A DNA stretch of 63,173 nt, counting the filler, from Chrysochromulina tobinii (lineage: Eukaryota): NCBI GenBank assembly GCA_001275005.1. It is 9 parts of 9 records of this genome, joined end to end, with 100 filler letters (N's around TTAATTAATTAA, not from the genome) between each part and the next. Parts side by side here need not be neighbours in the genome. Positions count along the whole stretch, not along the records: positions 24,028 to 31,684 come from JWZX01000103.1; 8 more parts are not named here. One strand, 5' to 3'. The notes beneath the pieces were generated by a model that saw only the letters and a program-made list of their open reading frames with translations, ran no database searches and was not told the DNA's origin. The translations under genes were made by a program, and so were the position numbers. Of the stretch, positions 17,005 through 59,756 are shown piece by piece; position 1 is the stretch's first letter, and every line of letters starts with the position of its first letter.

Positions 17005-18870
17005 ATGATCTCGTGCAGAGCCGACCAATGCCCTACCCTTCAGGGTCAGATGGATGTCTCGAAGATGTGCTCGCCAGCAGGGCTGAAGCCTCAGGCCGAC
17101 GAGATGAACAAGCCACTGACGGGAAACCATGGCATGGTCCATGCATGCGGCCAGCAGAATCAATGCACTCCAGGCGTCCAGAGGTCATGCATGGCCGACT
17201 ACAAAGGTGGCAAAACAGTGCTCATCACGAGCACGCGCACTTCGAGCCTGCTTAAATCCGCCATCAGGTCCGTTGAACCTTTGGCGGCGACGACACCTGC
17301 AGACCCTGCAGACCGTCCGCTCGATCTGCCGCTGTGGATCTATCACGAGGAGTCACATGATAGGCAGCCGTTGCCTGGCGCTATCCGTGAGTGGGCAAAT
17401 GCCAAGCACGTCTGCCTTGTCGACCTCTTCCATGTGGTCCCAGAGCTCCACCACTGGCTGCACTCCAACGCATCGTGCATCGATGCCTTCTACAAGATCG
17501 CGGGCCATTCTGAGCCGTTCGAGAAAACTTTGGTTTTCAAGTCGGCTAAAGTCCTTGTGCGCAAGACTGCCGCGATCTTCCACGCCGTCCATTCTCTGCC
17601 AAACAAGGCGACCGTCTTATGGGTGGACTTTGACGTGGCTCCATCGGCTGAGGCGGCGCTGGACTGGACTGTCTTTTGGAACTTCGTACAGCAGCATGAC
17701 GTCTCCTACCTGCCATTCGTGCACGCCGTGAGAACGGTATCAGCAGTCCTGAGTGGAGCTTCGTTCCCTCCTCACGGGGGGCCGCTGCCAAACACAACCA
17801 GGTGCACTGACCCGGGACGCGACGTTGACAAAGCGGCGCTCGGCAGCACGATGTGGGTAGTCGACACGGGCGTGCTTGCACTGGTTGTCAGCGACGTTAC
17901 GCGCGAGCTCGCTGCGCTCGTCCTTAGACATTACGACTCAACGGCTTCCGAGCTTGCTTCGAAGTGCTTGTGCCAGCTTCAGAGCTCAGCCAACGAGGCT
18001 GCGCTGCTCAGCGTCGACAGCGATGCCGATGGGCCGCAGAATGAGACTGCTTGCTCCAACTACAGAGGTTACGCAGTGGACGTCAAGCCAAACAAGTGGT
18101 GCAAGGACCGTATCAATTATTGCCGTCACGAATACATCGCCAAACGCTGCCGAGCCACGTGCAAGACGTGCAAGAGCACGCGTGAGCTGAAGATTCGTCG
18201 CTCCCAGGAGGGGTGCGCGCAAGTGCGGCGGTCCCTGTACCTCGACGACCTCTTTGTGTGGACATTGTACTTGCAAGCCGACCTATCACCGGCCGAATCG
18301 ATGCCAGTCCTGCCTCGCCTACGCTCACCGCTTTCCCATGGCTGGTTTGCAGTCGGTAACAGGAGTCAGATGCTGTCGCAGAAACAGAGAGATGTGCACC
18401 AGAGGATGGGGAAGCTTTGCCCCACCGCGCTGGACCGCCACCACTGGCGGTGCTTTGAATGTGCAAGTACAAGTCCATTATCGGTGTGCAAGTCCTCCTT
18501 CTTCATGTCCACCGAGTGTCCGGGCGCCTCGAGCTTCACCTCGCCGTTCAACACCTTCACGTACTTCCAACATAAGATCAATCAAGGCGCTGGTGACTAC
18601 ACGGCCCGGGCAGCGGCCTGGCAGCGTACGACTCGCAATGCAAGCGCGGCCACTCGCAATTCAAGCGCGGCAATGAACATGTACCTGAGAAACGGCTGCA
18701 TTTGTAGACGTTGCACCATGCCCCCCCGCCGCCCGTCGCCGGTGCGTACGAATATATCCGATCCGTACAAGCCTAGCCCAACCGGGGCAACTGCTACTCA
18801 GCGTACCGCACGGCACGTTCCGAACAAGACAGAGCTGCAAGCGAAGAGCAGTCCGGCTCGAGTTCACTGA
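17005..18870 (+). CDS. Uncharacterised protein with a glycosyltransferase-like DxD region and an ShK-like Cys motif
   Basis: 621-aa ORF containing RKTAAIFHA..VLWVDFDV and WCKDRINYCRHEYIAKRCRATCKTC. Start uncertain. Confidence 0.5.
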   Translation: MISCRADQCPTLQGQMDVSKMCSPAGLKPQADEMNKPLTGNHGMVHACGQQNQCTPGVQRSCMADYKGGKTVLITSTRTSSLLKSAIRSVEPLAATTPADPADRPLDLPLWIYHEESHDRQPLPGAIREWANAKHVCLVDLFHVVPELHHWLHSNASCIDAFYKIAGHSEPFEKTLVFKSAKVLVRKTAAIFHAVHSLPNKATVLWVDFDVAPSAEAALDWTVFWNFVQQHDVSYLPFVHAVRTVSAVLSGASFPPHGGPLPNTTRCTDPGRDVDKAALGSTMWVVDTGVLALVVSDVTRELAALVLRHYDSTASELASKCLCQLQSSANEAALLSVDSDADGPQNETACSNYRGYAVDVKPNKWCKDRINYCRHEYIAKRCRATCKTCKSTRELKIRRSQEGCAQVRRSLYLDDLFVWTLYLQADLSPAESMPVLPRLRSPLSHGWFAVGNRSQMLSQKQRDVHQRMGKLCPTALDRHHWRCFECASTSPLSVCKSSFFMSTECPGASSFTSPFNTFTYFQHKINQGAGDYTARAAAWQRTTRNASAATRNSSAAMNMYLRNGCICRRCTMPPRRPSPVRTNISDPYKPSPTGATATQRTARHVPNKTELQAKSSPARVH

Positions 18871-19187
18871 AAGGTCTGAGCCGCCCCTGCGCGCGTTGCC
18901 GTTGGCCCTAGCGGCTGTAGCCGGGCCGTAGCGCAACAATGTCGCATAGAGATAGTCTAGTGGTCGTGTTATATATTTTCGTTTTCAGAGCGTCTCCACA
19001 TGAGGATGGAGGAACGTGTTAGGTATTACCGTACATCCGATCAACTCGACGTCGTCAGCGTCTACTCTGAACATAGTTTATCTTTTCCCGATAGAATTCA
19101 AGTATTCAACATGAATACGCCGCGCATGTGCCGAATCGAATCATCCTATTCTGCTGCGGCGTTCTTGCTCCTTGCTTCGTTGGAGTC

Positions 19188-21884
19188 TCACATGGCAAAC
19201 GAGCCCAGCGTGAGGGCAAGCTCCGACGCCGCCGAGCGCATAAGCGGTATGGCCGGCGGCACCGCTCCAGAGGCTGAGCCGAGGGCGGCTTCCGACTTGG
19301 AACGCACGAATGCGAGCCCAGCGATCGCCGAGCCGCTGGCGTCGATGGCGCCGCTCGCGCCGCACGCACCCTCGGCGGCCATCACCTGCTGCGCCACCCG
19401 GAGCAGTCGCAGACGGTCGGAGCGCGAGCGGGTGAGAGGCACGCCCAGCAGCCGTACGTCCGGCATGCTCTCGCCGCGAGGCATCGAGGGCGCGGGTGCC
19501 ATGGCGCCCGCTATGGCGCCCGCTGACAAGTCGGCTTCGACCTCGGTCTGGTTGTGCAGCGAGACCTCCCGAGATTCCCGGCGCGAGATATTGGGCGAGA
19601 CATTGGGCGAGGACGACTCGCCCATCTCTGCCCATCCCTGCCTGGCCGGGGACTTAGGTGGCATCGGGGGTGGCTTGGGCGGCGGCGCCTTTTGCTTCTT
19701 GATAGCGGAGTTGGGTGTCGCCCTCACGCCGACCCTCGCGGGATCTTCGCGGGATGCTCGCGCCTCGCGGCCACGGCTGCTGCCGCCACTGCTGCCGCTG
19801 CTGTACCGGCCGCTGTTGCGGCGCGCCGAGCGCGCCGTTTCCCATCCATCCTCGTCGATGGCCGCTGCGATCTGCTGCACGGGGTCCATCATGGGCTCAT
19901 CAGACTCACTCATCTCCGCGTCGGCACCGCCCACGTCGGCCGCCAGCTCCTCGTCTGCCCCCACGGCCTCCAGCGCCGGCGGCTCTGACAGCGCCGATGC
20001 CGCCGCCGATGCCGCCGCCGATGCCGCTGGGGCATTGGCACGCATCCCCCAGGCATTCGGCGAAGACGGATGGAGTCCTGGGGGACATGGCGGGCTGATG
20101 GCAGCCGCAGCCGCCCGCGTCGTGCGCCCGTGCGCCGCCGCCACCGTGGGCGTCGGCGCCGCAGTCGCCGCCGCCTTCCTCATCTCCTGAAACACCTTGT
20201 CACCGACGGCCCGAGTGCATGCGCTGGTGAGGAATTCATTCAACGGGATCCGCGAACGAAGCAGTCCCTCGACGTGGGCGCGCACGCGTGGCTTTCCGAC
20301 GGCGCGCGCGCCACTCGAGGGCGCGCGGATGCACGCCTGCAGCAGTGCGCCGTAGGTGTAGTGGTCGGGTTGCAGCCGCCGCTCGGCCAGCTGCGCGCAG
20401 ACGCGCTCGACTGCATCGAGATCGCCGGCAGCTGCATGCGCCGACGCGAGGGCGTTGAATGTCACCTGGGAGGGCTCGACCCGCGCCGAAAGCATCATGC
20501 CGAAGGTGGTCTCGGCGGCGGCGATGCACCCCGCCTTGCCCTGTGCTGAGATGAGCGCGTTGAACGAGGCAGCCGAGAGCGACGCCTTCGCATGCACTAG
20601 AGCTCGCAAAGATTCCACAGCCGCCTCGAGCTCGCCAGATGTGGTGAGCGCGTGGATCAGGATGGCATGAGTGGTAGGCGTGACCTCGACAGCCTCCCGG
20701 CGCATGCGCTCGACACAGCGCAGCGCCGCCGCCGCGTCGCCGCGCTTGGCGTGGGCCGAGCAGACAGTGTTGTATGAGACCGCATCCGGTTGAAGCCCCG
20801 CGGCAGCCATACGATCGAGCCAAGCCTGGGCCGCCTTGCCGTCGGCCGCCTTGGCGTGTGCGTTGAGCACGGTGGAGTAGCTCACCTGGTTGGGCTGCAG
20901 CCCCGCCGCGAGCAGCTGCGCGAACGCCGCCTCCGCCTCCGCCGGCTTCTCCGCGCGCACGCAGGCCAGCAGCAGCGTGTTGTACGAGATCAGATCTGGC
21001 TGCGCACATGGCAGCTCGTCGCGCGCATGCTCTTCGAACCATGCAAGCAGCTTGCGCGCGCCGGGCACGTCAGCCACGTTGGCGTACGCGGAGAGCGCCG
21101 TGTTGAGCGCCATCGCGTCCGGCAGCACCTTGGCGTCGATCATACGCCAGAGTGTTCGGGCTGCATCGGCTGGGCGGCGCGCGCGCGCAAAGGCCGACAC
21201 CACCGCGGTGAAGGTGATACGGCTAGGCGCGAAGCCGGCGTCGAGCATCGAGTGCAGGATGTCCTCGGCCTTGTCGGGCCGACCCGCCGTGCCCATCGCC
21301 GTGATCACCGTGTTGAACGACACCTCGTCCGGCGGCGGGTAACCCGCTGCGCCGCCAGCAGCGAGCGAGCGCATCATCGAGCTGAGCAGCGCCGCGGCTC
21401 CTGTGAAGTCGGGTGGCGTGAGTCGCATGATGGCCTTGAGCTGCACGTTGCATGCAGCCGTGTCGGGCTGCATGCCCGCCTCCCGCATGCGAGCGAGCCA
21501 GGCGAGCACTGCCTCGGGCGTGCTGTGCTTGTCAAGGGCATGAAGGACATTCACGCAGATAGACTGCGAAGGCGTGAAACCACCGCGCGTGCAGGTGGCA
21601 AGGACACCCTCGATCGCGGCCTCGACTGAGTGGCCGATGGCGAGCAGCGCGTTGAACTGCATGTTCGCCATGCGCACGTTGGCTGCGCTGCCCGCGCGCG
21701 CCAGCGTGGCAAGGGCACCGTTTGGGTCGCCCGCGCGCAGCAACGCGGCCATCTCGGACTCGTCGTTGCCTTCAGCCTTGCTGCTGGCGGCCGAGCCAGT
21801 CGACAGGGTGCGCATTGCAGCCACCTCCGTCGCAGGAAGGCTGAGGCCGGGCGGAAGGGACGGCGGCAAGGAGGACGTCGCCAT
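19188..21884 (-). CDS. Pentatricopeptide repeat (PPR) protein
   Basis: Multiple 35-aa repeats beginning PDEVSFNTVITA, PSRITFTAVVSA, PDLISYNTLLLA, PNQVSYSTVLNA, PDAVSYNTVCSA and PDHYTYGALLQA. Confidence 0.92.
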   Translation of the reverse strand: MATSSLPPSLPPGLSLPATEVAAMRTLSTGSAASSKAEGNDESEMAALLRAGDPNGALATLARAGSAANVRMANMQFNALLAIGHSVEAAIEGVLATCTRGGFTPSQSICVNVLHALDKHSTPEAVLAWLARMREAGMQPDTAACNVQLKAIMRLTPPDFTGAAALLSSMMRSLAAGGAAGYPPPDEVSFNTVITAMGTAGRPDKAEDILHSMLDAGFAPSRITFTAVVSAFARARRPADAARTLWRMIDAKVLPDAMALNTALSAYANVADVPGARKLLAWFEEHARDELPCAQPDLISYNTLLLACVRAEKPAEAEAAFAQLLAAGLQPNQVSYSTVLNAHAKAADGKAAQAWLDRMAAAGLQPDAVSYNTVCSAHAKRGDAAAALRCVERMRREAVEVTPTTHAILIHALTTSGELEAAVESLRALVHAKASLSAASFNALISAQGKAGCIAAAETTFGMMLSARVEPSQVTFNALASAHAAAGDLDAVERVCAQLAERRLQPDHYTYGALLQACIRAPSSGARAVGKPRVRAHVEGLLRSRIPLNEFLTSACTRAVGDKVFQEMRKAAATAAPTPTVAAAHGRTTRAAAAAISPPCPPGLHPSSPNAWGMRANAPAASAAASAAASALSEPPALEAVGADEELAADVGGADAEMSESDEPMMDPVQQIAAAIDEDGWETARSARRNSGRYSSGSSGGSSRGREARASREDPARVGVRATPNSAIKKQKAPPPKPPPMPPKSPARQGWAEMGESSSPNVSPNISRRESREVSLHNQTEVEADLSAGAIAGAMAPAPSMPRGESMPDVRLLGVPLTRSRSDRLRLLRVAQQVMAAEGACGASGAIDASGSAIAGLAFVRSKSEAALGSASGAVPPAIPLMRSAASELALTLGSFAM

Positions 21885-24027: not shown

Positions 24028-24263
24028 CCAACGATGATGTGGACGATGATGTGGACTATTGGGCGCTTCCAAACGACAAGCGTCATAATCCCAATCGCTA
24101 CGGGTGGGACCCGGATCAGGGCTATCTTTACCATACTCCACCAGCTCAACAAACACCGTCCATTCTTGGCACAGCTCACGCGCAACACTCTGGAACAGTG
24201 TACGACCTCGATGATGACGACGATGATGGTGACATACCTTTGGTGTTCCGTAGGCGACGATAA
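24028..24263 (+). CDS. Acidic C-terminal fragment of a putative viral protein, 5' truncated
   Basis: Frame is open from the contig start (NDDVDDDVDYWALP...) to TAA 24263, 21 nt before the next ATG. Confidence 0.5.
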
Positions 24264-24284
24264 TTCTAAGCTTCCAGGTAAACG

Positions 24285-26135
24285 ATGTTGACCGGTTTGT
24301 TCAAAGGACGACAAAGCATTGAAGTTGGTGGGCCAATCGGATCGATGAAAGACGCGAAATCGAAAAGCTTGGCGAACCCCGACTACAAGGCGGCGTATCT
24401 GCTAAAACGCTTGACGGGTTACGAACCAGATTCGAATCCGGGACTTGACATGACGATCGACCGGTACAGACCGGAAGATAGCCGGCCATGGATGGATCAG
24501 GCTGAAAAGACCGCATTTCTTATGAACGCGGTCAAGGGCTACGAAGCGGAAGCCGAGGAGTCTTTAAAACTGGAGTTCAAAGATTGGTTAAGAGGCGAGC
24601 ACAACGATAACAACGATCCACAACCCTACAATAATGCACATGGTGGGTTGAAACGCAGAGACACGCGTGGTGAACAACTGGATGAGTGGTACCCGACGTG
24701 GTGGGGTAAGAAGCAGTTAACGCACCTCCCAGGCGTTCGAGAATATCTGCGCGAGGATCACATCTCGGCGGACAAAGCCTCGTTTGACATGAACATGCTC
24801 GCGCACTTCGGCCCGAGCAACCTCGAGGAGGCATGGGCATACTTCAAGTATTGGGTCAAGCGTCGGCCGGTTGGGCCGTGGATTAGACTGAATGAGCCCG
24901 ACGCTTCTGCTAATGCTAATACACCCTTTGAACGTTCGGGTCCAATCTCGATGGCTCCTGCAGATGCGGTTCTGAACATTGAGACAAACGCCAGAGGTAT
25001 CAAGAAGGTGCAGATGCCCGAGTTGGCGCGTCGCGAGGCAGGCAATACCTCTCTTTTGGATCGCGCCTTGACGCAAGCTGTCAAGGAATCAGCTGCCTTA
25101 CGAAACACAGAAGAAGCGGACAGGCTTCGAAAGGAAGCTGATGCTCTTGATGCTGCAGACAAGCAGAAAGAAGCAGAAATACTCGAAGCTCTGAAACGTG
25201 CAGATCCATTTAAGACCAAGTATGCGAAAGAGATGTTCGATGACGGTTACTTTGAGCCACACATGAAATCCTTGCAACAAGAGTATAAAAACACTGTGGC
25301 ACAGAAAGCTAAATCAGAGCCGGAAGTGTTGTGGCGCAAGTTGATGGCAAACAACGATAGGCAATTCACACGAGAGGAGTATAATCGAGTTCAAAACTAT
25401 ACTGGAATGACAACAGAAGCTCCACTTCAAGCTCGAATGGATCAGTTGATGGCAATCAAGGGCGTCTCACCAAAGATGAAGGAGCTCATCGGAGATCTCT
25501 TAAAGGACAGATTCAATTTTAAGGGTTCATACGCCGATCATTATCACCACGATAAACTCTTGCTCAAGCAAACTGATGCATGGCTGAAACAGGCTCAAGT
25601 TGGAATGCAGCTTACGAGACTTCTCACAGACAGAAAAGAAGCAAGGGCTGCATCAGCAGCGGCGCAGGCAGCGGAGCAGGCAGCGGAGCAGGAGGCACGC
25701 GATAAGATTGATGCATTGGTACAGCAAAGAGTGGATGCGATTCTGCGAAAAAGGGGACTATTGGAAGACGGAGATGATGTCGCGGAGGTAGATGAAAAGC
25801 GCGTGGACGAGGCGGAGGTAGAAGAGCGCGTAGCCGAGGTTCTTGAAAGCGTTCTTCAACGTGTCGCGGAGGTAGAAGAAGAAGACGAGGAGGAGGGAGA
25901 AGAAGTGGAAATTTTCGGCGAAAGAGGCGTCTTGCAAAGCACACCTGGCAAAGCTGCAGCCGATTCTAGTCCCACTGACACCTCGACAACCCTAGAAGTA
26001 TCACCTGCATCACCTGCCGTTACTCGCATGAACGAGCCAGCTCCCAGCAAGCCAACAATGAAGTTCAATGTAGCAGCTAGAGCCGTATCATCACCTAACG
26101 AACCTCGACGTCCAAAACCAGCCACAGGCCGCTAG
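24285..26135 (+). CDS. Putative viral protein, 616 aa, with a globular N-terminal domain and a coiled-coil/acidic tail
   Basis: Long ORF preceded by TTCTAAG (24264-24270). Motif QLTHLPGVREYL...GPSNLEEAWAYFKYWV. Confidence 0.75.
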   Translation: MLTGLFKGRQSIEVGGPIGSMKDAKSKSLANPDYKAAYLLKRLTGYEPDSNPGLDMTIDRYRPEDSRPWMDQAEKTAFLMNAVKGYEAEAEESLKLEFKDWLRGEHNDNNDPQPYNNAHGGLKRRDTRGEQLDEWYPTWWGKKQLTHLPGVREYLREDHISADKASFDMNMLAHFGPSNLEEAWAYFKYWVKRRPVGPWIRLNEPDASANANTPFERSGPISMAPADAVLNIETNARGIKKVQMPELARREAGNTSLLDRALTQAVKESAALRNTEEADRLRKEADALDAADKQKEAEILEALKRADPFKTKYAKEMFDDGYFEPHMKSLQQEYKNTVAQKAKSEPEVLWRKLMANNDRQFTREEYNRVQNYTGMTTEAPLQARMDQLMAIKGVSPKMKELIGDLLKDRFNFKGSYADHYHHDKLLLKQTDAWLKQAQVGMQLTRLLTDRKEARAASAAAQAAEQAAEQEARDKIDALVQQRVDAILRKRGLLEDGDDVAEVDEKRVDEAEVEERVAEVLESVLQRVAEVEEEDEEEGEEVEIFGERGVLQSTPGKAAADSSPTDTSTTLEVSPASPAVTRMNEPAPSKPTMKFNVAARAVSSPNEPRRPKPATGR

Positions 26136-26197
26136 AGCACATACGCCAAATGCACGCCGCTATTCGCTTTAAATTCTAGAGCACATGCAGCTTGCGC

Positions 26198-26344
26198 ATG
26201 GGCGTCGAGCACGTGTACGTCGTCTACGATCCGACTCGCCCCGTCAACCGCTTCGATCTCGGGTTCCGCAAAGTCTCGAAGATGATCGAGCTGACTCATT
26301 ACGAGGTCTTCCAGCCATTGCAGGTCACGGTCGTCAATTTGTGA
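26198..26344 (+). CDS. 48-aa ORF absent from the ORF track; candidate N-terminal part of a penton/minor capsid jelly roll
   Basis: MGVEHVYVVYDPTRPVNRFDLGFRKVSKMIELTHYEVFQPLQVTVVNL*. Codons end mostly in G/C and TTCTAG lies upstream at 26174-26179. Confidence 0.55.
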   Translation: MGVEHVYVVYDPTRPVNRFDLGFRKVSKMIELTHYEVFQPLQVTVVNL

Positions 26345-26379
26345 TGGGGACATGACATCTTCTAAGCATGTATTGAACC

Positions 26380-27195
26380 ATGTCGTCCCAACAACCCATC
26401 GAAGTGAAGCTCGCTCCGGGACTCCTGACCACACTGCGCGGTCCAAGGTGTTCTCTTGCAGCAGGTGAGGTGGTCAGCACTGGTAATTCTGTTCTGTTGC
26501 TTCCACTGTGGAGTGGCGCGAATGATGCTTTTGTCATCAACAACAAAGATACTGAAGGCGTCGACTTTGCGTTACTGTTCGACGTGACTACGGGTAAGTT
26601 CATCTTTCCTTTGGCATGTGTGCACAGTGAAGTGAGTGCTAGCAACGGGTTGCCTGTCGAATTGATCGGGTTTTGGACGGACAAGTTTCCGTCAGCTGCG
26701 CCTGAAGACCTGCTCACCGCGGTGTTCACATTGGTTGTGAAGAATGGCACTGAGCAGGCGTACTCCTCAGTGACGATACACCGACTACCGACGACAGTTG
26801 TCGTGGGCAATGTTACGGAACGACCAGGCACTCCGGAACAAGACCCTCCAGGCACTTCACTTACATTGACTGGTGCTTCTGTTGTAGAGAACATTAACAA
26901 TGGCTTTCCAACCATCGCCTCTAATACGCCCGTGGTCATTACACCCACCTTTCCCAGTGGCCACAGCGCTGTTTTCACTGTAACTGGCTACAATTGGGAC
27001 CAGACCGTAGAGATTGAAAACCCAGTCTACAGTTGGGAAATAGGTGCAGGCTTTACGGTGGTCTCTGGAACGCCATACACTTTGACGATCGGACCACAGA
27101 GTTTTAATCGAACACGTGTGTTCGTCACCATGATTGTCACGAGTCCTGATGGTGAAACTACGACTCTGATTGAAATGGTCATCGTGGAGACTTAA
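26380..27195 (+). CDS. Beta-rich putative virion spike or insertion-domain protein, 271 aa
   Basis: Thr/Val/Gly/Pro-rich alternating beta pattern with very few Lys/Arg. TTCTAAG at 26360-26366. Confidence 0.65.
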   Translation: MSSQQPIEVKLAPGLLTTLRGPRCSLAAGEVVSTGNSVLLLPLWSGANDAFVINNKDTEGVDFALLFDVTTGKFIFPLACVHSEVSASNGLPVELIGFWTDKFPSAAPEDLLTAVFTLVVKNGTEQAYSSVTIHRLPTTVVVGNVTERPGTPEQDPPGTSLTLTGASVVENINNGFPTIASNTPVVITPTFPSGHSAVFTVTGYNWDQTVEIENPVYSWEIGAGFTVVSGTPYTLTIGPQSFNRTRVFVTMIVTSPDGETTTLIEMVIVET

Positions 27196-27252
27196 GGAGT
27201 CACGACAAGCTTGATCGAACCTAAGATCCATAATTTCTTAACGCCGTATTAA

Positions 27253-27588
27253 ATGGCAGCGGCTAATAACTCGTCAGGAAGCACTGGAACAGAACCGGCA
27301 GAACCGACCTTCTTAAGCATCGACGAGATTGAGGGCAACTTCACGATCATCGTGTACAACAACGAGACGCATCAGACGCTTCGTGAAAAGGTCTTCTGTG
27401 TACTTGGCAATCCGACAAATCATCAACCGGTGCACACACTCCCCTTCAACCCACGACACATCTCATCCCTGACGCTGCAGCTGCGTAAGTACAACAAGGA
27501 GACGAACACGTACGAGAAGTACAACGGCCCGAAGGTCGGACTCTGGTTCAAGATCGTGACCGACGATTGCTCTGGCTCAAATTCATGA
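27253..27588 (+). CDS. Minor capsid (penton)-like single jelly-roll protein, C-terminal strands
   Basis: FLSIDEIEG...FCVL...FNPRHISSLTLQLRKY...YNG...LWFKIVT resembles the C-terminal pattern I recall for PLV and NCLDV pentons. Confidence 0.65.
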   Translation: MAAANNSSGSTGTEPAEPTFLSIDEIEGNFTIIVYNNETHQTLREKVFCVLGNPTNHQPVHTLPFNPRHISSLTLQLRKYNKETNTYEKYNGPKVGLWFKIVTDDCSGSNS

Positions 27589-27628
27589 TCGACGACTCTT
27601 GTATTTTCCGAGTGCCTGAGGAGCAACG

Positions 27629-28558
27629 ATGGCTACGAGAGCACCCGGTCCCGTGCCTGCAGGCCTTCAGCTCGCACCAATGAATAAGACCGACCCGACG
27701 ATGCAAACTAAGCTCGGTAGTGATCTCGATCACTTGCGGCAAACTTACCATGAGCCTTCGTATGGAAGAGACGCAAATGATACGTATACTGGGTATGTGG
27801 CTAACGGTATGGATCCAGACAAGGCTCAGACACTGCCTCAATGGTACCCCCGCGGCCTGACGCACATGCCAGTACAGTACGGCGGGCCATCGGCGGAGAA
27901 GGAGAACATGGACCGCCTGAATCAACTGATCGAGGTGGCGCCCAAGGGTGCGGGTGGTGCGATGCGGTACGCGCCGATTGGGGACAAGGAGGTCAACTAC
28001 CTCAAGTACATGGAGGACATGGCCGAGCTCGCAAAGTTCGACAACTACGTCGAGTCTTTTGTCGATCCAAGGCAGCCCGGCAGTGCCGAGTTTTTGTTCA
28101 AGGTCTACCCGGAGTACATTAACCGGCGCATGCAGCAGGCGCACACGGATTATGAGTTTGCACTGCGGAATCAGATGATTGACATGTGGGGCATTAACAC
28201 CTTCGACGACCTGTACTTTAAGTATTTGGTGGACCAGAAGAGGATCAGCGGTCCATCGCTACAACGTGCGGCGACTACCATTGACGACGAGTACGTCGGG
28301 GCGTACCTTGCACCCTGGAGCCATCCGAGGAAAAAGGTTGATGCAGAACATTTGTACCTCCCCTTCGCGTCCGCAAAGATTGGAGCAAAGCCAACTAATC
28401 AAAACGATTGGCGAATCGAACGCAAGGCCAATATGCCATTCAGGCACTCACAGACCCGGCAGCAATTGGCTCATTCAGTTTTCACGAAAGCGCCAGGACT
28501 TAACTCTGACGGGACGCCAAACACTAATCTGCCTGGTGATGGCAAGGGCACTGCATAA
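27629..28558 (+). CDS. Putative viral protein, 309 aa
   Basis: Clean ORF. Motif PEYINRR...WGINTFDDLYFKYLV. Variant upstream motif TTCCGAG. Confidence 0.75.
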   Translation: MATRAPGPVPAGLQLAPMNKTDPTMQTKLGSDLDHLRQTYHEPSYGRDANDTYTGYVANGMDPDKAQTLPQWYPRGLTHMPVQYGGPSAEKENMDRLNQLIEVAPKGAGGAMRYAPIGDKEVNYLKYMEDMAELAKFDNYVESFVDPRQPGSAEFLFKVYPEYINRRMQQAHTDYEFALRNQMIDMWGINTFDDLYFKYLVDQKRISGPSLQRAATTIDDEYVGAYLAPWSHPRKKVDAEHLYLPFASAKIGAKPTNQNDWRIERKANMPFRHSQTRQQLAHSVFTKAPGLNSDGTPNTNLPGDGKGTA

Positions 28559-28584
28559 ATATTCTAAGTACATTCTAGTGTACC

Positions 28585-28845
28585 ATGTCGGCCCCGGCAG
28601 TTCAGATCGAAGGGTGGCGTGGCGTGCTCGTTGTGTGCGGGCTCGGGCATCCGCTCGCGCGCGCGTTCGTCGCGGGCACGCTCGTCGGTGTCGTCGCGTT
28701 CACGGCGGGCCTGCCCAGGTCGGCGTTCACAGAGGACGGGCACTTGCGCCCGCAAGCCGGGCTGTCGAGCGACCCTGAAGCGTGCGACTATCATTTTCTA
28801 GTGGTTCCATTGAGTGTCGCGCTAGTCGTCGGGCTCTTCACATGA
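28585..28845 (+). CDS. Small two-TM putative viral membrane protein
   Basis: Two hydrophobic helices flank P..AFTEDG.LRP, similar to the P.F.F..DG..R motif of small NCLDV membrane proteins. TTCTAAG at 28562-28568. Confidence 0.7.
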   Translation: MSAPAVQIEGWRGVLVVCGLGHPLARAFVAGTLVGVVAFTAGLPRSAFTEDGHLRPQAGLSSDPEACDYHFLVVPLSVALVVGLFT

Positions 28846-29168
28846 GCAGCGTCGGCGAGTTTGTTAAGAGCAAGATGCACAACATGGCCGTCTGGGTGCA
28901 GGAGGAGCTCGGCTCGGTCATCGCGATCGACTACGTCGCGGCGGTCGACGCGCGCTCGGAGCTCGAGCTCACGACGCTGTGCGTGATGCTGCACACTGAG
29001 AGGGACATCGCAGCGCGGCGTGATTGGGACGCGCTCGTCGAGCTCGCAAGTGAGGAAGCCGCGCTCGCGCCGCTGCTGCAGATCCTCGTTGAGGTGCGCC
29101 AGCGCGAGCCGATGCACGAGAAGTTTTGGAAGTATGTGCAGCTGTTCATCGACGTGATCGATGAGTGA
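28842..29168 (+). CDS. Small helical putative viral protein, 108 aa
   Basis: ATGA overlap with the upstream gene at 28842-28845. C-terminal KFWKYVQLF motif. Confidence 0.7.
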   Translation: MSSVGEFVKSKMHNMAVWVQEELGSVIAIDYVAAVDARSELELTTLCVMLHTERDIAARRDWDALVELASEEAALAPLLQILVEVRQREPMHEKFWKYVQLFIDVIDE

Positions 29169-29199
29169 TTAGTTTCTAAGTGTCGAGTGTGTGTCAGCA

Positions 29200-29604
29200 A
29201 TGCCTGAAATTTATGATCCACTGAACCTCATCGAGCTCGACCCGGTGATGCTCAGCGCCGCGCAGGAGGAGCGCGCGGCGCTCAAGAAGACGAAGGGGGG
29301 CGCTGGTCCGTCGAAGGACAAAGCGCCCACCGAACCCAAAGAACTTAAGAAGCAGAAGGAGGTCGTCGCGGCGATGGAGTCGACGCCGCAGGAGCTGCCG
29401 CCGCCGCCCTCGCCCGAGGAGCTGCGTGTGATGCTCGACAAGATCGGCGCGTATAAGGAGCGCTTCCCGAACCTAAAGTCGCGCAACAAGGTCGGGCCGA
29501 AGAGCTCGCCCGAGGAGATTGAGGACGAGCTACACTACATTCAGCTGCAGCTCGGCACTAGCACGCAGAGCGGCAACTTTGGCAGAGCACTACGACTCGA
29601 TTGA
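29200..29604 (+). CDS. Putative viral protein, probably C-terminally truncated
   Basis: TTCTAAG at 29174-29180. Motif LDKIGAYKERFP...SSPEEIEDELHYI. The frame ends shortly after an apparent junction near 29582. Confidence 0.6.
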   Translation: MPEIYDPLNLIELDPVMLSAAQEERAALKKTKGGAGPSKDKAPTEPKELKKQKEVVAAMESTPQELPPPPSPEELRVMLDKIGAYKERFPNLKSRNKVGPKSSPEEIEDELHYIQLQLGTSTQSGNFGRALRLD

Positions 29605-30070
29605 CAACTACATCGACCACGACTGCTACACTCAGTATCTCGATCCCTTCGGAACAGCGCCGTGGGTGCGCGACGGGGATCACAAGCATCTAGAGGCGCG
29701 CGACCGTGGACGCGCTGTCCGCGAGAAGCAGCTCAATGTCCTCTTGCCCATGGTAGCGGCGGCATCTGAAATGGAGGCCGATCTCTATGTCCCAAGCGTT
29801 GCCGAGGTGGAGAAACTCCCCAAGTTCTCATCGCATGTGGGGATTGGCAATTGGGGCTGCGACACGTGGCGAGGGGCTCTGCGAGACGTACGAGGGGTCG
29901 GGGCTCTGCCGATCCTGAATCAGACGATACGGGATGAGGAATTTCCCCAGAAGGACAAGGGCCAGGTGGCTCGCGAGGTGCATCAGGAGAACTTCTACGT
30001 TTCGCGCGTTTTCGACCGAAGCGGCGCGCCAGACCACGGTAGATACTGTGCACCAGGGGCCACAGAATGA
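29582..30070 (+). pseudogene. Start-less coding segment (AEHYDSIDNY...APGATE*), a remnant of another viral gene
   Basis: Coding-like codon usage in the +1 frame, with no ATG or upstream motif at its 5' end. Confidence 0.5.
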
Positions 30071-30118
30071 GCATAGTAACACACGAACCTTAGAACTTTC
30101 TAGAGGTGTTAACGAGCA

Positions 30119-30400
30119 ATGGACGACTTGGAATCGGAGCTGGCGCGGAGTGTTTCTGCACAGGTGAGTAAAACATTCATAGAGACACGGCCGCTCCTGG
30201 CACTCGGTGTTCTGGTACTTCTCATTGGAGCCTACGAGATGCGTAAGCACGTCCCAAAGCAGCCACACAGCCGCAGCGCCGTCGTGCACGCTGCGGACGA
30301 CCTCGAGATCGGGCGCCACAGGCACGACGGCTCACAGCCGACGGCCGACCGCGTTCGACCGGGCCATCGCAAGACCATCACGTGGGACGCTAGGCTATAG
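30119..30400 (+). CDS. Small single-TM putative viral protein, 93 aa
   Basis: TTCTAG at 30098-30103 and a hydrophobic segment PLLALGVLVLLIGAY. Confidence 0.65.
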   Translation: MDDLESELARSVSAQVSKTFIETRPLLALGVLVLLIGAYEMRKHVPKQPHSRSAVVHAADDLEIGRHRHDGSQPTADRVRPGHRKTITWDARL

Positions 30401-30813
30401 AAGCTGAACGTCTATGAGACCTTCGTAGTGACTCTCTCCGTTGTACACGATGTAGATGACATCGGCTGTCGGCCCTCCAAGTGGGTTCATCCTTTTTGGC
30501 TCTTCCATGCGGAACAGGTTTTCAGGGTCGTCGTCGTCGTCGGGGGTTAGTTTGGGTCAAGCGCACATATAACAATTCCACAAACCCGATTCGTTAACAT
30601 GAACTCCGATGGGATTTCGAAACCACAGATTCCTTTTGGATGACCATCACGACGCGAGCGTTCCACAGCATGACCGCTCCAGGGCGCGTGACTTCGACGT
30701 GAACCATGCAAAGGGCCTGGTCTGACGTCGCTTATGGCGCCAATGGATTCTCCAGCCTTTCGTTCACATCCCCACGAACTTTGGACTCCCCAAACGACGA
30801 GGCAGCCCCCCAA
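30395..30813 (-). pseudogene. Frameshifted remnant with an OTU-like cysteine protease C-terminal motif
   Basis: Minus strand 30550-30395 reads LTPDDDDDPENLFRMEEPKRMNPLGGPTADVIYIVYNGESHYEGLIDVQLL*. It is one base out of frame with the upstream ORF 30547-30813. Confidence 0.4.
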
Positions 30814-31306
30814 AATGAAGCATTTCGAGCCTGCTTTTAGATTTACCTAGCCGCGTGTTTTTAGATTTATCGTGTGTTTTTAGATTTACTGCTTTGCACC
30901 TGCGGTGCATATCTTCGGCTATGTATGCCAGGTCGGTTGCACTTTCTGTGCGCGTCACCCTTGTGTTCACCCGGCACATCTGTACGTGCTTGATCCCCTC
31001 TGCGGCACCATTGATTGCTAGTCGGGTAGTACAAGGTCTCAGACGACGCGATGCGATGACCTCTACGGAGCAGTCGTGTTAATCCGCTGTGCATCATTGT
31101 CCGGCACTTTCTGTGCGTTTGTCACCCTCCTGTTTGCACTTTACGTGCATTGACTGCGAGTCGGGAAGTTGCTTTTAACCAGCTCAGCTCACACACACAA
31201 CGAATTTTCTGCATCGCGTAAACAGTGATTGGGTATTCGTGCGCGCCGCGGGTCCGGGTGACGCCGCGCGACAATTTCACACGCCGCCGCGACAATTTCA
31301 CAGCCA

Positions 31307-31684
31307 ATGTTTAGAATTCGACACCCAAGACACCGGACCGGCGTACATACGGATGCGGTTATTTCACACTCCCCAAACGATGGCGAGTGTGCCGAGGCCG
31401 AGGGCTCTTACTCGGTCGCCGTGCATGGCCGCTGCATGATTGCGCACTCTTTCGAGGGCGAGTGCTTCGGGCCCGCGCAGGCGCTGCACGGCTGCACGTA
31501 CGTCGTCGACGCCATCGTCGAGGGTCCCAGGCTCCAAACGGGCGCAAACTACCTCGTCGACTTTTGCCCTGCGGAGCGCGCCTTGCATGTCGCTCTCGGG
31601 TGCTACCGTGAGCGCAACCTCGACGAGCTCGTTGAGTTCGCGGGCGAGAACACGATGTGCGAGCGCGTCGCGAGGGCCGTGTGG
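31307..31684 (+). CDS. 6-pyruvoyl-tetrahydropterin synthase / QueD-like protein, partial and possibly degenerate
   Basis: YSVAV...MIAHSF.GE.FGPAQALHG.TYVVD...NLDE..EFAGENT..E. Truncated by the gap, and the 5' end is unclear. Confidence 0.75.
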
Positions 31685-58322: not shown

Positions 58323-58822
58323 ATTGACGCCTGCTTTCAGATGAGTTACGTGTATGTGAAAGTCGAGACTCACGCACGTCCGGCCGCGCGCAGCAAGCGC
58401 GCCGCGGCCGCGGTAGCGACGCTCGGGACACATTGGTTTCCGAGGGATATTTTCAGCACCGGTCTCGACAACAGCTCATGATCCGAGATGATGGTAAGTA
58501 AGTTGCAACATTCAGTCAGTCTACAGTCAGTAATTGTTTTGCGGCCGCACACACTCGTCACTCCGATTCGGGAGACGGGGGTTGGGACGGGCTTCGGCAC
58601 TCCTCTCTCCAATTGCCTCTCTCCTCGTCTCCTGGCGTCAAATACGCGCCTGGCGCGTGGCGGCAAGTACGACGATCAGTACGGGTTGTGTGACATTACA
58701 GGGGGGAAAATGTAATTTCAAGCTTCGGACTCTCGGAATCCTACACATCTTGGCCTTGGGGGCCTTGGGGCCAGGATTCATGGAATTTGGAATCTGAGCC
58801 AAGGTAAAGGTATAGCGAGTTT

Positions 58823-59281
58823 GCAAATAAGCGCTGGGGGCCGGAAGTGGAATCGGGAATTTCGGAATCCTGGGTTTGCAAGGAGCGTTGGGGGGCGGAA
58901 GTGTAATCGGGAATTTCGGAATCCTGGGTTTGCAAGGAGCTCTGGGGGCCGGAAGTGTAATCGGGAATTTCGGAATCCTGGGTTTGCAAGGAGCGCTGGG
59001 GGCCGGAAGTGGAATTGGGAATTTCGGAATCCTGGGTTTGCAAGGAGCGCTGTGGGCCAGAAGTGGAATCGGGAATTTCGGAATCCTGGGTTTGCAAGGA
59101 GCGCTGGGGGCCGGAAGTGGAAACGGGAATTTCGGAATCCTGGGTTTGCAAGGAGCGCTGGGGGGCGGAAGTGGAATCGGGAATTTCGGAATCCTGGGTT
59201 TGCAAGTAATGCAAGGAGCTCTGGGGGCCGGAAGTGGAATCGGGAATTTCGGAATCCTGGGTTTGCAGGGAGCGCTGGGGC
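58823..59281 (+). repeat. 54-bp tandem minisatellite, eight full copies plus a partial one (left arm of a foldback structure)
   Basis: Unit GCAAGGAGCGCTGGGGGCCGGAAGTGGAATCGGGAATTTCGGAATCCTGGGTTT starts at 58823, 58878, 58932, 58986, 59040, 59094, 59148 and 59211. Confidence 0.95.
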
Positions 59282-59579
59282 CAAGGGGGGGCTGGGACGT
59301 GCAAGGTTGCCCCCCCCCTCCCCCCCCAAAGCGCTGCGCGCCGCGCCGCGCTCCGCGCGCACCCAGCAAACCGCCGCGTAACGCCGCTCCACCTGTGGTC
59401 ACAGGGTCCATGTGCACCTTGCATACTTAATTTAGGCGCTCGCCTCGTCTTCCGCGTGACGCCGCACGCTACCTGTCACCTGTGGTTGGGCTCACGCCTA
59501 ACTCGTGGTTAGGCTCCCGCCTAACTCGTGGTTCCGTACGTTTTTACTAACCATTATAATAAAAAAAAAACTTAACCCC

Positions 59580-59756
59580 GCTCCTTGCAAACCCAGGATT
59601 CCGAAATTCCCGATTCCTCTTCCGGCCCCCAGCGCTCCTTGCAAACCCAGGATTCCGAAATTCCCGATTCCACTTCCGGCCCCCAGCGCTCCTTGCAAAC
59701 CCAGGATTCCAAAATTCCCAATTCCACTTCCGGCCCCCAGCGCTCCTTGCAAACCC
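59580..59756 (-). repeat. Same 54-bp unit in inverted orientation, about three copies (right arm)
   Basis: GCTCCTTGCAAACCCAGGATTCCGAAATTCCCGATTCC.CTTCCGGCCCCCAGC is the reverse complement of the left-arm unit. Confidence 0.95.

Follow-up and report, generated by a model that had tools for sequence, protein, structure and literature searches.

The window analysed here is a stretch of 63,173 nucleotides (nt) from the Chrysochromulina tobinii assembly GCA_001275005.1, in which contigs are strung together with N-linkers. The findings on the motif described below are confined to a single contig of 7,657 nt (JWZX01000103.1, window positions 24028-31684), on which a run of viral genes gives way to host-type sequence at the right end. 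On its gene content, this contig is read as a fragment of a gamadvirus (Mriyaviricetes) rather than of a virophage. Its gene starts are preceded by a 9-nt motif that, judged from its sequence behaviour, very probably has promoter function.

A search with the protein of the open reading frame (ORF) at 27629 found 16 viral and 42 metagenome loci. The syntenic relatives of the element encode Capsid_N/Capsid_NCLDV, Pox_A32, Pox_VLTF3, Pox_A22 and YqaJ. The nearest long relative, L021, is 67% identical over the 27629 protein and 52-91% identical over the window genes. In Table S1 of PMC11253617, L021 is among three of six looked-up relatives entered as gamadviruses and is listed with VLTF2 and VLTF3. 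Comparison of gene order with that table placed Mriya_1, Mriya_51, Mriya_50, PEV_20, Mriya_48 and PEV_15 in the window; the Mriya and PEV names of window genes were assigned in this way. The contig therefore carries the combination that marks Gamadviridae, Mriya_1, 48, 50 and 51 with PEV genes restricted to gamadviruses. Another locus, L017, has the same combination, 3.5 kb of additional sequence and a PDDEXK (YqaJ-like) nuclease gene; because it is identical to the contig across all 7,657 nt, it is not independent evidence.

The element is thus represented by about 10 kb, in a family whose genomes measure 35-45 kb and encode no DNA or RNA polymerase. Genes for the nucleocytoplasmic large DNA virus (NCLDV)-type major capsid protein, A32 ATPase, VLTF2, VLTF3, RuvC, HUH and SF3 helicase were not found in this fragment and are present in relatives. 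No virophage or polinton-like virus (PLV) capsid, protease, pPolB or integrase was found in the fragment, the relatives having Capsid_NCLDV and VLTF3 instead. A phage collection gave no match to the element, and the 24285 protein as lone query retrieved no viral contig. Rather than a mavirus-like virophage, the element is read as a gamadvirus, VLTF2 and VLTF3 being encoded by its relatives. Compared with Gamadviridae as described in PMC11253617, the fragment shares Mriya_1, 51, 50 and 48, PEV_20, PEV_15, a PEV_22-like gene, PDDEXK and the gene order of L021, and differs in a 2-kb deletion, a rearranged PDDEXK gene and a split minor capsid gene.

The first-pass annotation had described a TTCTAAG/TTCTAG motif shortly upstream of the viral start codons. 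Its six TCTA cores are present, 16, 19, 15, 18, 21 and 16 nt before the ATG of the following gene; these distances do not always run to the next ATG, as had been written, since out-of-frame ATGs lie only 6 and 3 nt from the cores at 26175 and 26361. The variants TTCTTAA (27235) and TTCCGAG (27606) were also found in place. TCTA alone was not enriched, with 16 copies on the plus strand of 24028-30400 versus 12.6 after shuffling, a count reached by 97 of 500 shuffles. TTCTA(A/G) was enriched (9 versus 1.5), and none of 500 shuffles reached 9. All nine TTCTAAG/TTCTAG copies on the plus strand of the window fell within 24264-30098. TTCTA(A/G) was located 19-27 nt upstream of six of nine gene starts and of none of 96 other ATGs (P = 5e-8, for an interval picked post hoc). 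A matrix derived from relatives only gave eight plus-strand and two minus-strand matches of at least 8 bits on the contig; of the eight, seven stand 12-20 nt ahead of gene starts. The eighth plus-strand match, at 28793, had been overlooked in the first pass and lies 40 nt from a start.

The motif was then defined across gamadvirus relatives. The 58 loci and the window formed 24 groups; with the window's group left out, 23 non-redundant loci supplied 196 upstream regions of conserved genes, which were subjected to a blind k-mer and expectation-maximization (EM) search with a site threshold of 8 bits. The top 6-mers, TTCTGA and TTCTAA, occurred in 47 and 40 of the 196 regions versus 17 and 6 of 2,649 coding windows. 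The EM consensus was WWWTTCYRA, 11-28 nt before the ATG. A site of at least 8 bits was present within 75 nt in 165 regions and at 8-30 nt in 136, with a spacing mode of 11-21 nt and a sharp lower edge near 11.

A held-out set was collected through VLTF3 (79 loci) and reduced to 44 by removal of loci near the training loci or each other. An ATG with an ORF followed 552 of 683 strong sites (81%) at 10-30 nt, versus 51 of 231 (22%) with a reversed matrix. The motif held in 43 of the 44 loci, the sole failure (L137; 6 of 35) being an AT-rich large virus. Within these 43 loci, a site lay at 5-35 nt in 309 of 429 genes, including 148 of 174 virion and packaging genes and 105 of 164 information genes. 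PEV_20 and SSB had sites at this distance in 0 of 21 and 15 of 42 cases, respectively, and many of the others at 37-63 nt. TCTA accounted for 25% of the 309 held-out sites, with TCTG and TTCC equally common, and for seven of nine plus-strand gene-start sites in the window. Thus, the promoter-like motif of the first pass is real, while its TTCTAAG/TTCTAG consensus gives way to WWWTTCYRA in the family. HUH, HUH_long, probable PEV_8, nuclease, VLTF2 and VLTF3 genes also had the motif, so that it precedes replication and transcription-factor genes too, a point on which the first-pass late-promoter reading lacks support. A division of TTCC and TTCT sites into early and late classes was rejected, since these were skewed (42 of 105 versus 30 of 148 sites) but mixed within families.

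In its placement, the motif behaved like a DNA element at the 5' side of genes. Of 16 head-to-head junctions, 12 had an outward site on each strand, 3 a single site and 1 none, and 98 tandem junctions had 70 sense versus 4 antisense sites. The tail-to-tail control comes down to one junction, eight of its nine matches being attributable to an overlapping ORF. The 28793 site lies within the Mriya_50 coding sequence, where its codons are nearly frozen across genomes (His CAT 17/17, Phe TTT 17/17 and Leu CTA 14/17, versus backgrounds of 0.32, 0.38 and 0.11), unlike those of other invariant Mriya_50 residues, which vary; no P value is given because the genomes are related. The host comparison proposed in the first pass found the motif at none of 12 Pfam-supported host ATGs (best score 5.1 bits; these starts are first ATGs and few). 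On both strands of the other contigs (~110 kb), there were 14 matches, none before a Pfam-confirmed gene. The 5' flank is AT-rich over 3-5 nt, the 3' flank has 4-7 A+T of 10 in the window, and the base after the motif is free. The spacer is 53% A+T and purine-rich (A 0.32, G 0.26), and AG is not positioned within it (122 of 136 versus 115.5 shuffled). As the last A is not followed by a pyrimidine, and a polypyrimidine tract and a positioned AG are both missing, the motif is not a splice signal.

Table 1. Features of the contig in window coordinates; names marked "by gene order" follow the published gene table.
Feature	Position	Strand	Remarks
Motif site, 11.1 bits	24261..24269	+	15 nt 5' of ATG 24285
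Mriya_1 homolog, 616 amino acids (aa)	24285..26135	+	52% to L021 3723-5720; name by gene order
Motif site, 9.4 bits	26171..26179	+	18 nt 5' of ATG 26198
48-aa gene, probable N-terminal piece of split minor capsid protein	26198..26344	+	Motif-bearing homologs in L020, L021, L025
Motif site, 11.0 bits	26357..26365	+	14 nt 5' of ATG 26380
271-aa orphan, beta-rich; Ig/PKD-like lead only	26380..27195	+	No Pfam match; Atlas scores at most 0.82
Motif variant TTCTTA, 9.7 bits	27232..27240	+	12 nt 5' of ATG 27253; TTCTYA in 5/5 orthologs
PEV_22-like gene, likely the C-terminal part of a minor capsid protein	27253..27588	+	Profile match E 7.5e-5, probability 62%
Motif variant TTCCGA, 11.5 bits	27603..27611	+	17 nt 5' of ATG 27629
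Mriya_51 homolog, 309 aa	27629..28558	+	67% to L021; 293 homologs; name by gene order
Motif site, 12.8 bits	28559..28567	+	17 nt 5' of ATG 28585
Mriya_50 homolog, 86 aa	28585..28845	+	81% to L021
Motif site within Mriya_50 coding sequence	28793..28801	+	40 nt 5' of PEV_20 ATG
PEV_20 homolog, 108 aa	28842..29168	+	85% to L021
Motif site, 9.9 bits	29171..29179	+	20 nt 5' of ATG 29200
Mriya_48 homolog, deletion-shortened (134 vs 230 aa)	29200..29604	+	Full-length L021 copy is DUF5767
Deletion of ~2.0 kb vs L021	29583..29584		PEV_15 start and motif removed
PEV_15 remnant without start	29585..30070	+	75% to L021 13953-14444
Antisense motif site, 10.2 bits	30090..30098	-	15 nt 5' of ATG 30074 of candidate 113-aa antisense ORF
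Motif site, 7.3 bits	30095..30103	+	15 nt 5' of ATG 30119
93-aa gene, last viral gene	30119..30400	+	54-58% to L021 14492-14728
Host-type flank: high-copy repeat end (31296-31361) and PTPS-domain ORF (31307)	31296..31684	+	No motif

The hidden ORF at 26198, to which the motif had pointed in the first pass, is real, having motif-bearing homologs in three other groups. Its 48-aa product aligns weakly with the N terminus of PEV_22 minor capsid proteins (E 0.39), and the 27253 product resembles their C-terminal part (Table 1). Genes for the N- and C-pieces are adjacent in L020 and L025. In L021, for which Table S1 of PMC11253617 scores PEV_22 absent, the N-piece is found both on its own and as the leading part of two long proteins. 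These alignments suggest that 26198 and 27253 are likely the two halves of a split minor capsid protein (penton); at the head of the long L021 proteins, the N-piece perhaps serves as an anchor for spikes. Other small or unusual genes were seen. A conserved ORF of ~120 aa with its own motif follows the ATPase gene antisense over the 3' half of VLTF3 (L001 8109-8471 and eight further loci) and is outside the published core table. The candidate 113-aa antisense ORF over PEV_15, with motif and ATG (window 29733-30098, minus strand), has a similar layout in L021. A viral protein of 712 aa with SET and WW domains is encoded at L021 436-2574.

Relative to L021, the deletion truncates Mriya_48 and removes the PEV_15 start together with its motif. 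At the right end, viral homology stops near 30400, contig pieces tile across the junction, and the flank consists of the PTPS-domain ORF and a repeat at ~100x depth; neither a terminal repeat nor a target-site duplication was found there. Given the end of homology, the flank and the tiling pieces, this gamadvirus copy is probably integrated and decayed. Bin membership points to a haptophyte host for the element, and a different contig from the bin bears a Sec1 gene whose best named matches are haptophyte (64% Coccolithus, 61% Emiliania). The PTPS-domain ORF, which adjoins the very high-copy host repeat, exists in many variant copies. On another contig, a 54-nt tandem array occupies window positions 58776-59756, with an inverted copy 400 nt away.

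The first-pass annotation had likened the motif to the late promoter of Cafeteria roenbergensis virus (CroV). The capsid protein of L137 as query yielded 76 large-virus loci from IMG/VR, 55 with a recognisable start and 45 non-identical; these are unclassified relatives of one query. TTTCT occurred at -32 to -13 before 33 of the 45 capsid genes versus 6.0 after shuffling (maximum 14), with a spacer of 12-28 nt, and at -60 to -41 before none. WTCT preceded 31 of 164 other ORFs of these viruses. An RNA polymerase search in three of the fragments (46, 8 and 8% complete) found none and is uninformative, so that the 45 viruses stay unclassified. Both motifs consist of a T-run with TTCT and share the spacer range. 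The large-virus form has a longer T-run, a free base after TCT and a restriction mainly to capsid genes, whereas the gamadvirus motif precedes almost all genes. Capsid genes are late genes, and the shared core and spacing therefore point to a broad nucleocytovirus-type late promoter. By this analogy, the gamadvirus motif likely works like a broad Nucleocytoviricota late promoter, of which the CroV TCTA would be one form.

The CroV late promoter TCTA is shared with mavirus/EMALE type 4 and ChlorV (PMC5294985, PMC8547959, PMC13196603). The gamadvirus motif has in common with it the TCT core, the AT-rich 5' flank, proximity to the ATG and presence at almost every gene of a small double-stranded DNA virus, and differs in its TTCYRA core, in the equal frequency of TCTG and TTCC with TCTA, and in lacking an AT-rich 3' flank. 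The carriers differ as well, since the gamadvirus family encodes VLTF2/VLTF3 and an NCLDV-type capsid and has no known helper. The CroV/mavirus promoter reportedly lies 11-20 nt from the ATG; this short fixed distance is matched by the gamadvirus motif, and its invariant TCTA and two-sided AT flanks are not. The poxvirus late promoter depends on VLTF2/VLTF3. Like the gamadvirus motif, it is a short initiator-type element overlapping the start that involves late factors of the same families; unlike it, the poxvirus element has another sequence, lies directly at the ATG and is read by a viral RNA polymerase. The poxvirus sequence is TAAAT (PMC5294985).

The SF3 helicase of relatives was the exception to the motif, with no site of at least 8 bits at three of three inferred 5' regions. 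Its coding sequence is broken in L138, L139, L140, L142 and L148; of 15 breaks, 10 can be repaired by a canonical GT-AG join that ranks among the best-scoring 0.5% of all open joins, and 4 failed. PMC11253617 terms these breaks frameshifts and, in its available text, is silent on introns and promoters; on the join statistics, we read them as putative GT-AG introns. Nine gaps, all multiples of three and none canonical, were counted in ~515 kb of alignment across 13 motif-bearing families, compared with seven for the helicase in 23.5 kb. The automatic intron call has low sensitivity, recognising 2 of the 7 helicase gaps, and would overlook short in-frame introns. Splicing requires a template in the nucleus with RNA polymerase II (Pol II), and a spliced helicase therefore points to nuclear transcription by host Pol II. 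A putative intron of ~500 nt lies at the same codon in L140, L142 and L148 (the L148 helicase gene being at 17331-20490, minus strand) and encloses a gene in antisense orientation that has a motif of its own. Long inverted repeats flanking an AT-rich centre were observed at L017 1704-1940, L154 4258-4711 and L155 762-1058; those in L154 and L155 adjoin the helicase start and are candidates for a replication origin or end junction.

These observations suggest a model in which WWWTTCYRA, 11-28 nt before the ATG, would act as a late-type core promoter or initiator of gamadviruses. Transcription is predicted to start at the motif or just 3' of it; a start within the motif would leave a 12-28-nt leader. 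Host Pol II in the nucleus would read the motif, directed to it by VLTF2 and VLTF3 of viral origin, with VLTF3 as a TFIIB-like adaptor; we give this reading even chances. It is favoured by the spliced helicase, the absence of a family RNA polymerase, the kept VLTFs and the yaravirus nuclear factory. PMC11253617 describes a family without RNA polymerase that keeps VLTF2/VLTF3 throughout, and proposes nuclear replication. Yaravirus brasiliensis, the cultured mriyavirus, is of the same class and likewise has no RNA polymerase. It grows in amoebae, where its factory takes up the nuclear region, and no helper is described for it (bioRxiv 2020.01.28.923185). The N-terminal zinc ribbon of gamadvirus VLTF3 has archaeal TFIIB as its best match (E 0.0011). 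There would, with fair probability, be two gene classes, the spliced helicase being expressed first from a host-type promoter and the intron-free motif class thereafter. As the window copy is decayed, its own sites may be inactive or may depend on factors supplied in trans.

Several points weigh against this model. VLTF2 and VLTF3 genes are themselves motif-bearing in held-out loci (9 of 14 and 24 of 41), so that initial transcription would require factors brought in with the particle or a basal level of reading. The window fragment itself has no VLTF, major capsid protein or helicase gene, the helicase starts are inferred (n = 3), and fold searches with VLTF3 gave no significant match, the likeness to TFIIB being weak (E 0.28 by Foldseek, Z 4.5-5.0, model pLDDT 64). 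Upstream ATGs, whose depletion was used to test for transcription starting at the motif, were not significantly fewer (8 versus 12.1, P = 0.135), and coding sense strands did not avoid the motif (30 versus 25, P = 0.59). The sole RNA run (X16) contained short pieces only and no start sites. The yaravirus authors report no enriched promoter motif in the available part of bioRxiv 2020.01.28.923185. Finally, the intron-free motif class is equally expected from a cytoplasmic helper polymerase, and the match to large-virus late promoters suits a helper equally.

Such a helper would be a co-infecting giant virus encoding an RNA polymerase, whose late promoter the motif mimics; the helicase would be made in the nucleus and the other genes in the helper's factory, as for mavirus with CroV. 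The shared core and spacing at large-virus capsid genes, the lack of introns in motif-class genes, the VLTF genes under the motif, the occurrence of gamadviruses in or with haptophyte genomes, and the TCTA common to mavirus-type EMALEs and CroV (PMC8547959) all speak for a helper. Against it stand the retention of VLTF2/VLTF3 family-wide (PMC11253617), the growth of yaravirus with no helper described and the spliced helicase. A single motif over 60+ loci of varied GC content also suits an own reader better than many helpers. Virophages are not known to encode VLTF2/VLTF3. In the literature as available, a TCTA late motif is reported only for CroV and ChlorV, no motif was found for middle or late genes of the virus PgV (bioRxiv 2022.07.28.501842), and PgV infection of P. 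globosa yielded no transcripts from integrated PLVs (same source). We therefore regard a helper as unlikely and as the less likely of these two options.

If the virus had simply taken over an initiator of host Pol II, used with neither viral factors nor an early/late split, this would explain why nearly all gene classes are preceded by the motif, and the Py-Py-purine shape resembles eukaryotic initiators. The host starts, none of which reached 8 bits, the absence of matches before Pfam-confirmed genes on other contigs and the motif-free helicase make this distinctly improbable. A role in the RNA, as a branch point or trans-splice acceptor, as a 3'-end signal for the preceding gene or as an element for translation initiation, could account for the fixed ATG distance and for the frequent position of sites directly after stop codons, and TTCTRA resembles a branch-point core. 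Such a role appears very improbable given the free base after the motif, the purine-rich spacer with unpositioned AG, the presence of sites on either strand between head-to-head genes, a place without gene ends, and the wider spacing (37-65 nt) at PEV_20 and at many SSB genes. Chance occurrence from stop codons and AT-rich spacers has next to no credibility: TCTA alone is unenriched and TAA, TAG and TGA occur within the motif, yet TTCCAA and TTCCGA hold no stop, and the shuffles, the frozen codons and the held-out test refute a chance origin.

Returning to Pol II steered by VLTF2 and VLTF3, a wider reading, which we offer tentatively and with less than even confidence, is that gamadviruses preserve an ancestral, polymerase-free Nucleocytoviricota late promoter. 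VLTF2 and the TFIIB-like VLTF3 would turn Pol II onto a T-run and TTCT initiator at all genes except the spliced early helicase, and the element may later have been inherited by polymerase-bearing giant viruses and copied by virophages. No description of a mriyavirus promoter or of mriyavirus transcription was found in the literature searched, which included the available portions of PMC11502894, PMC6723459, PMC11998528, PMC12085832, bioRxiv 2026.08.29.747986 and bioRxiv 2025.04.19.649669; bioRxiv supplements and the figure pages of PMC11253617 lay outside this search. The motif is thus apparently a real, family-wide and undescribed variant of the nucleocytovirus late promoter. Mriyaviruses are the deepest-branching and smallest nucleocytoviruses, and a defined 9-nt element makes the recognition target of VLTF2/VLTF3, their partnership with host Pol II and the need for a helper testable in them. 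The motif also serves as a gene finder, as an ORF follows 81% of strong sites, and has exposed uncalled genes, among them the 48-aa capsid piece, the gene overlapping VLTF3 and the gene within the helicase intron.

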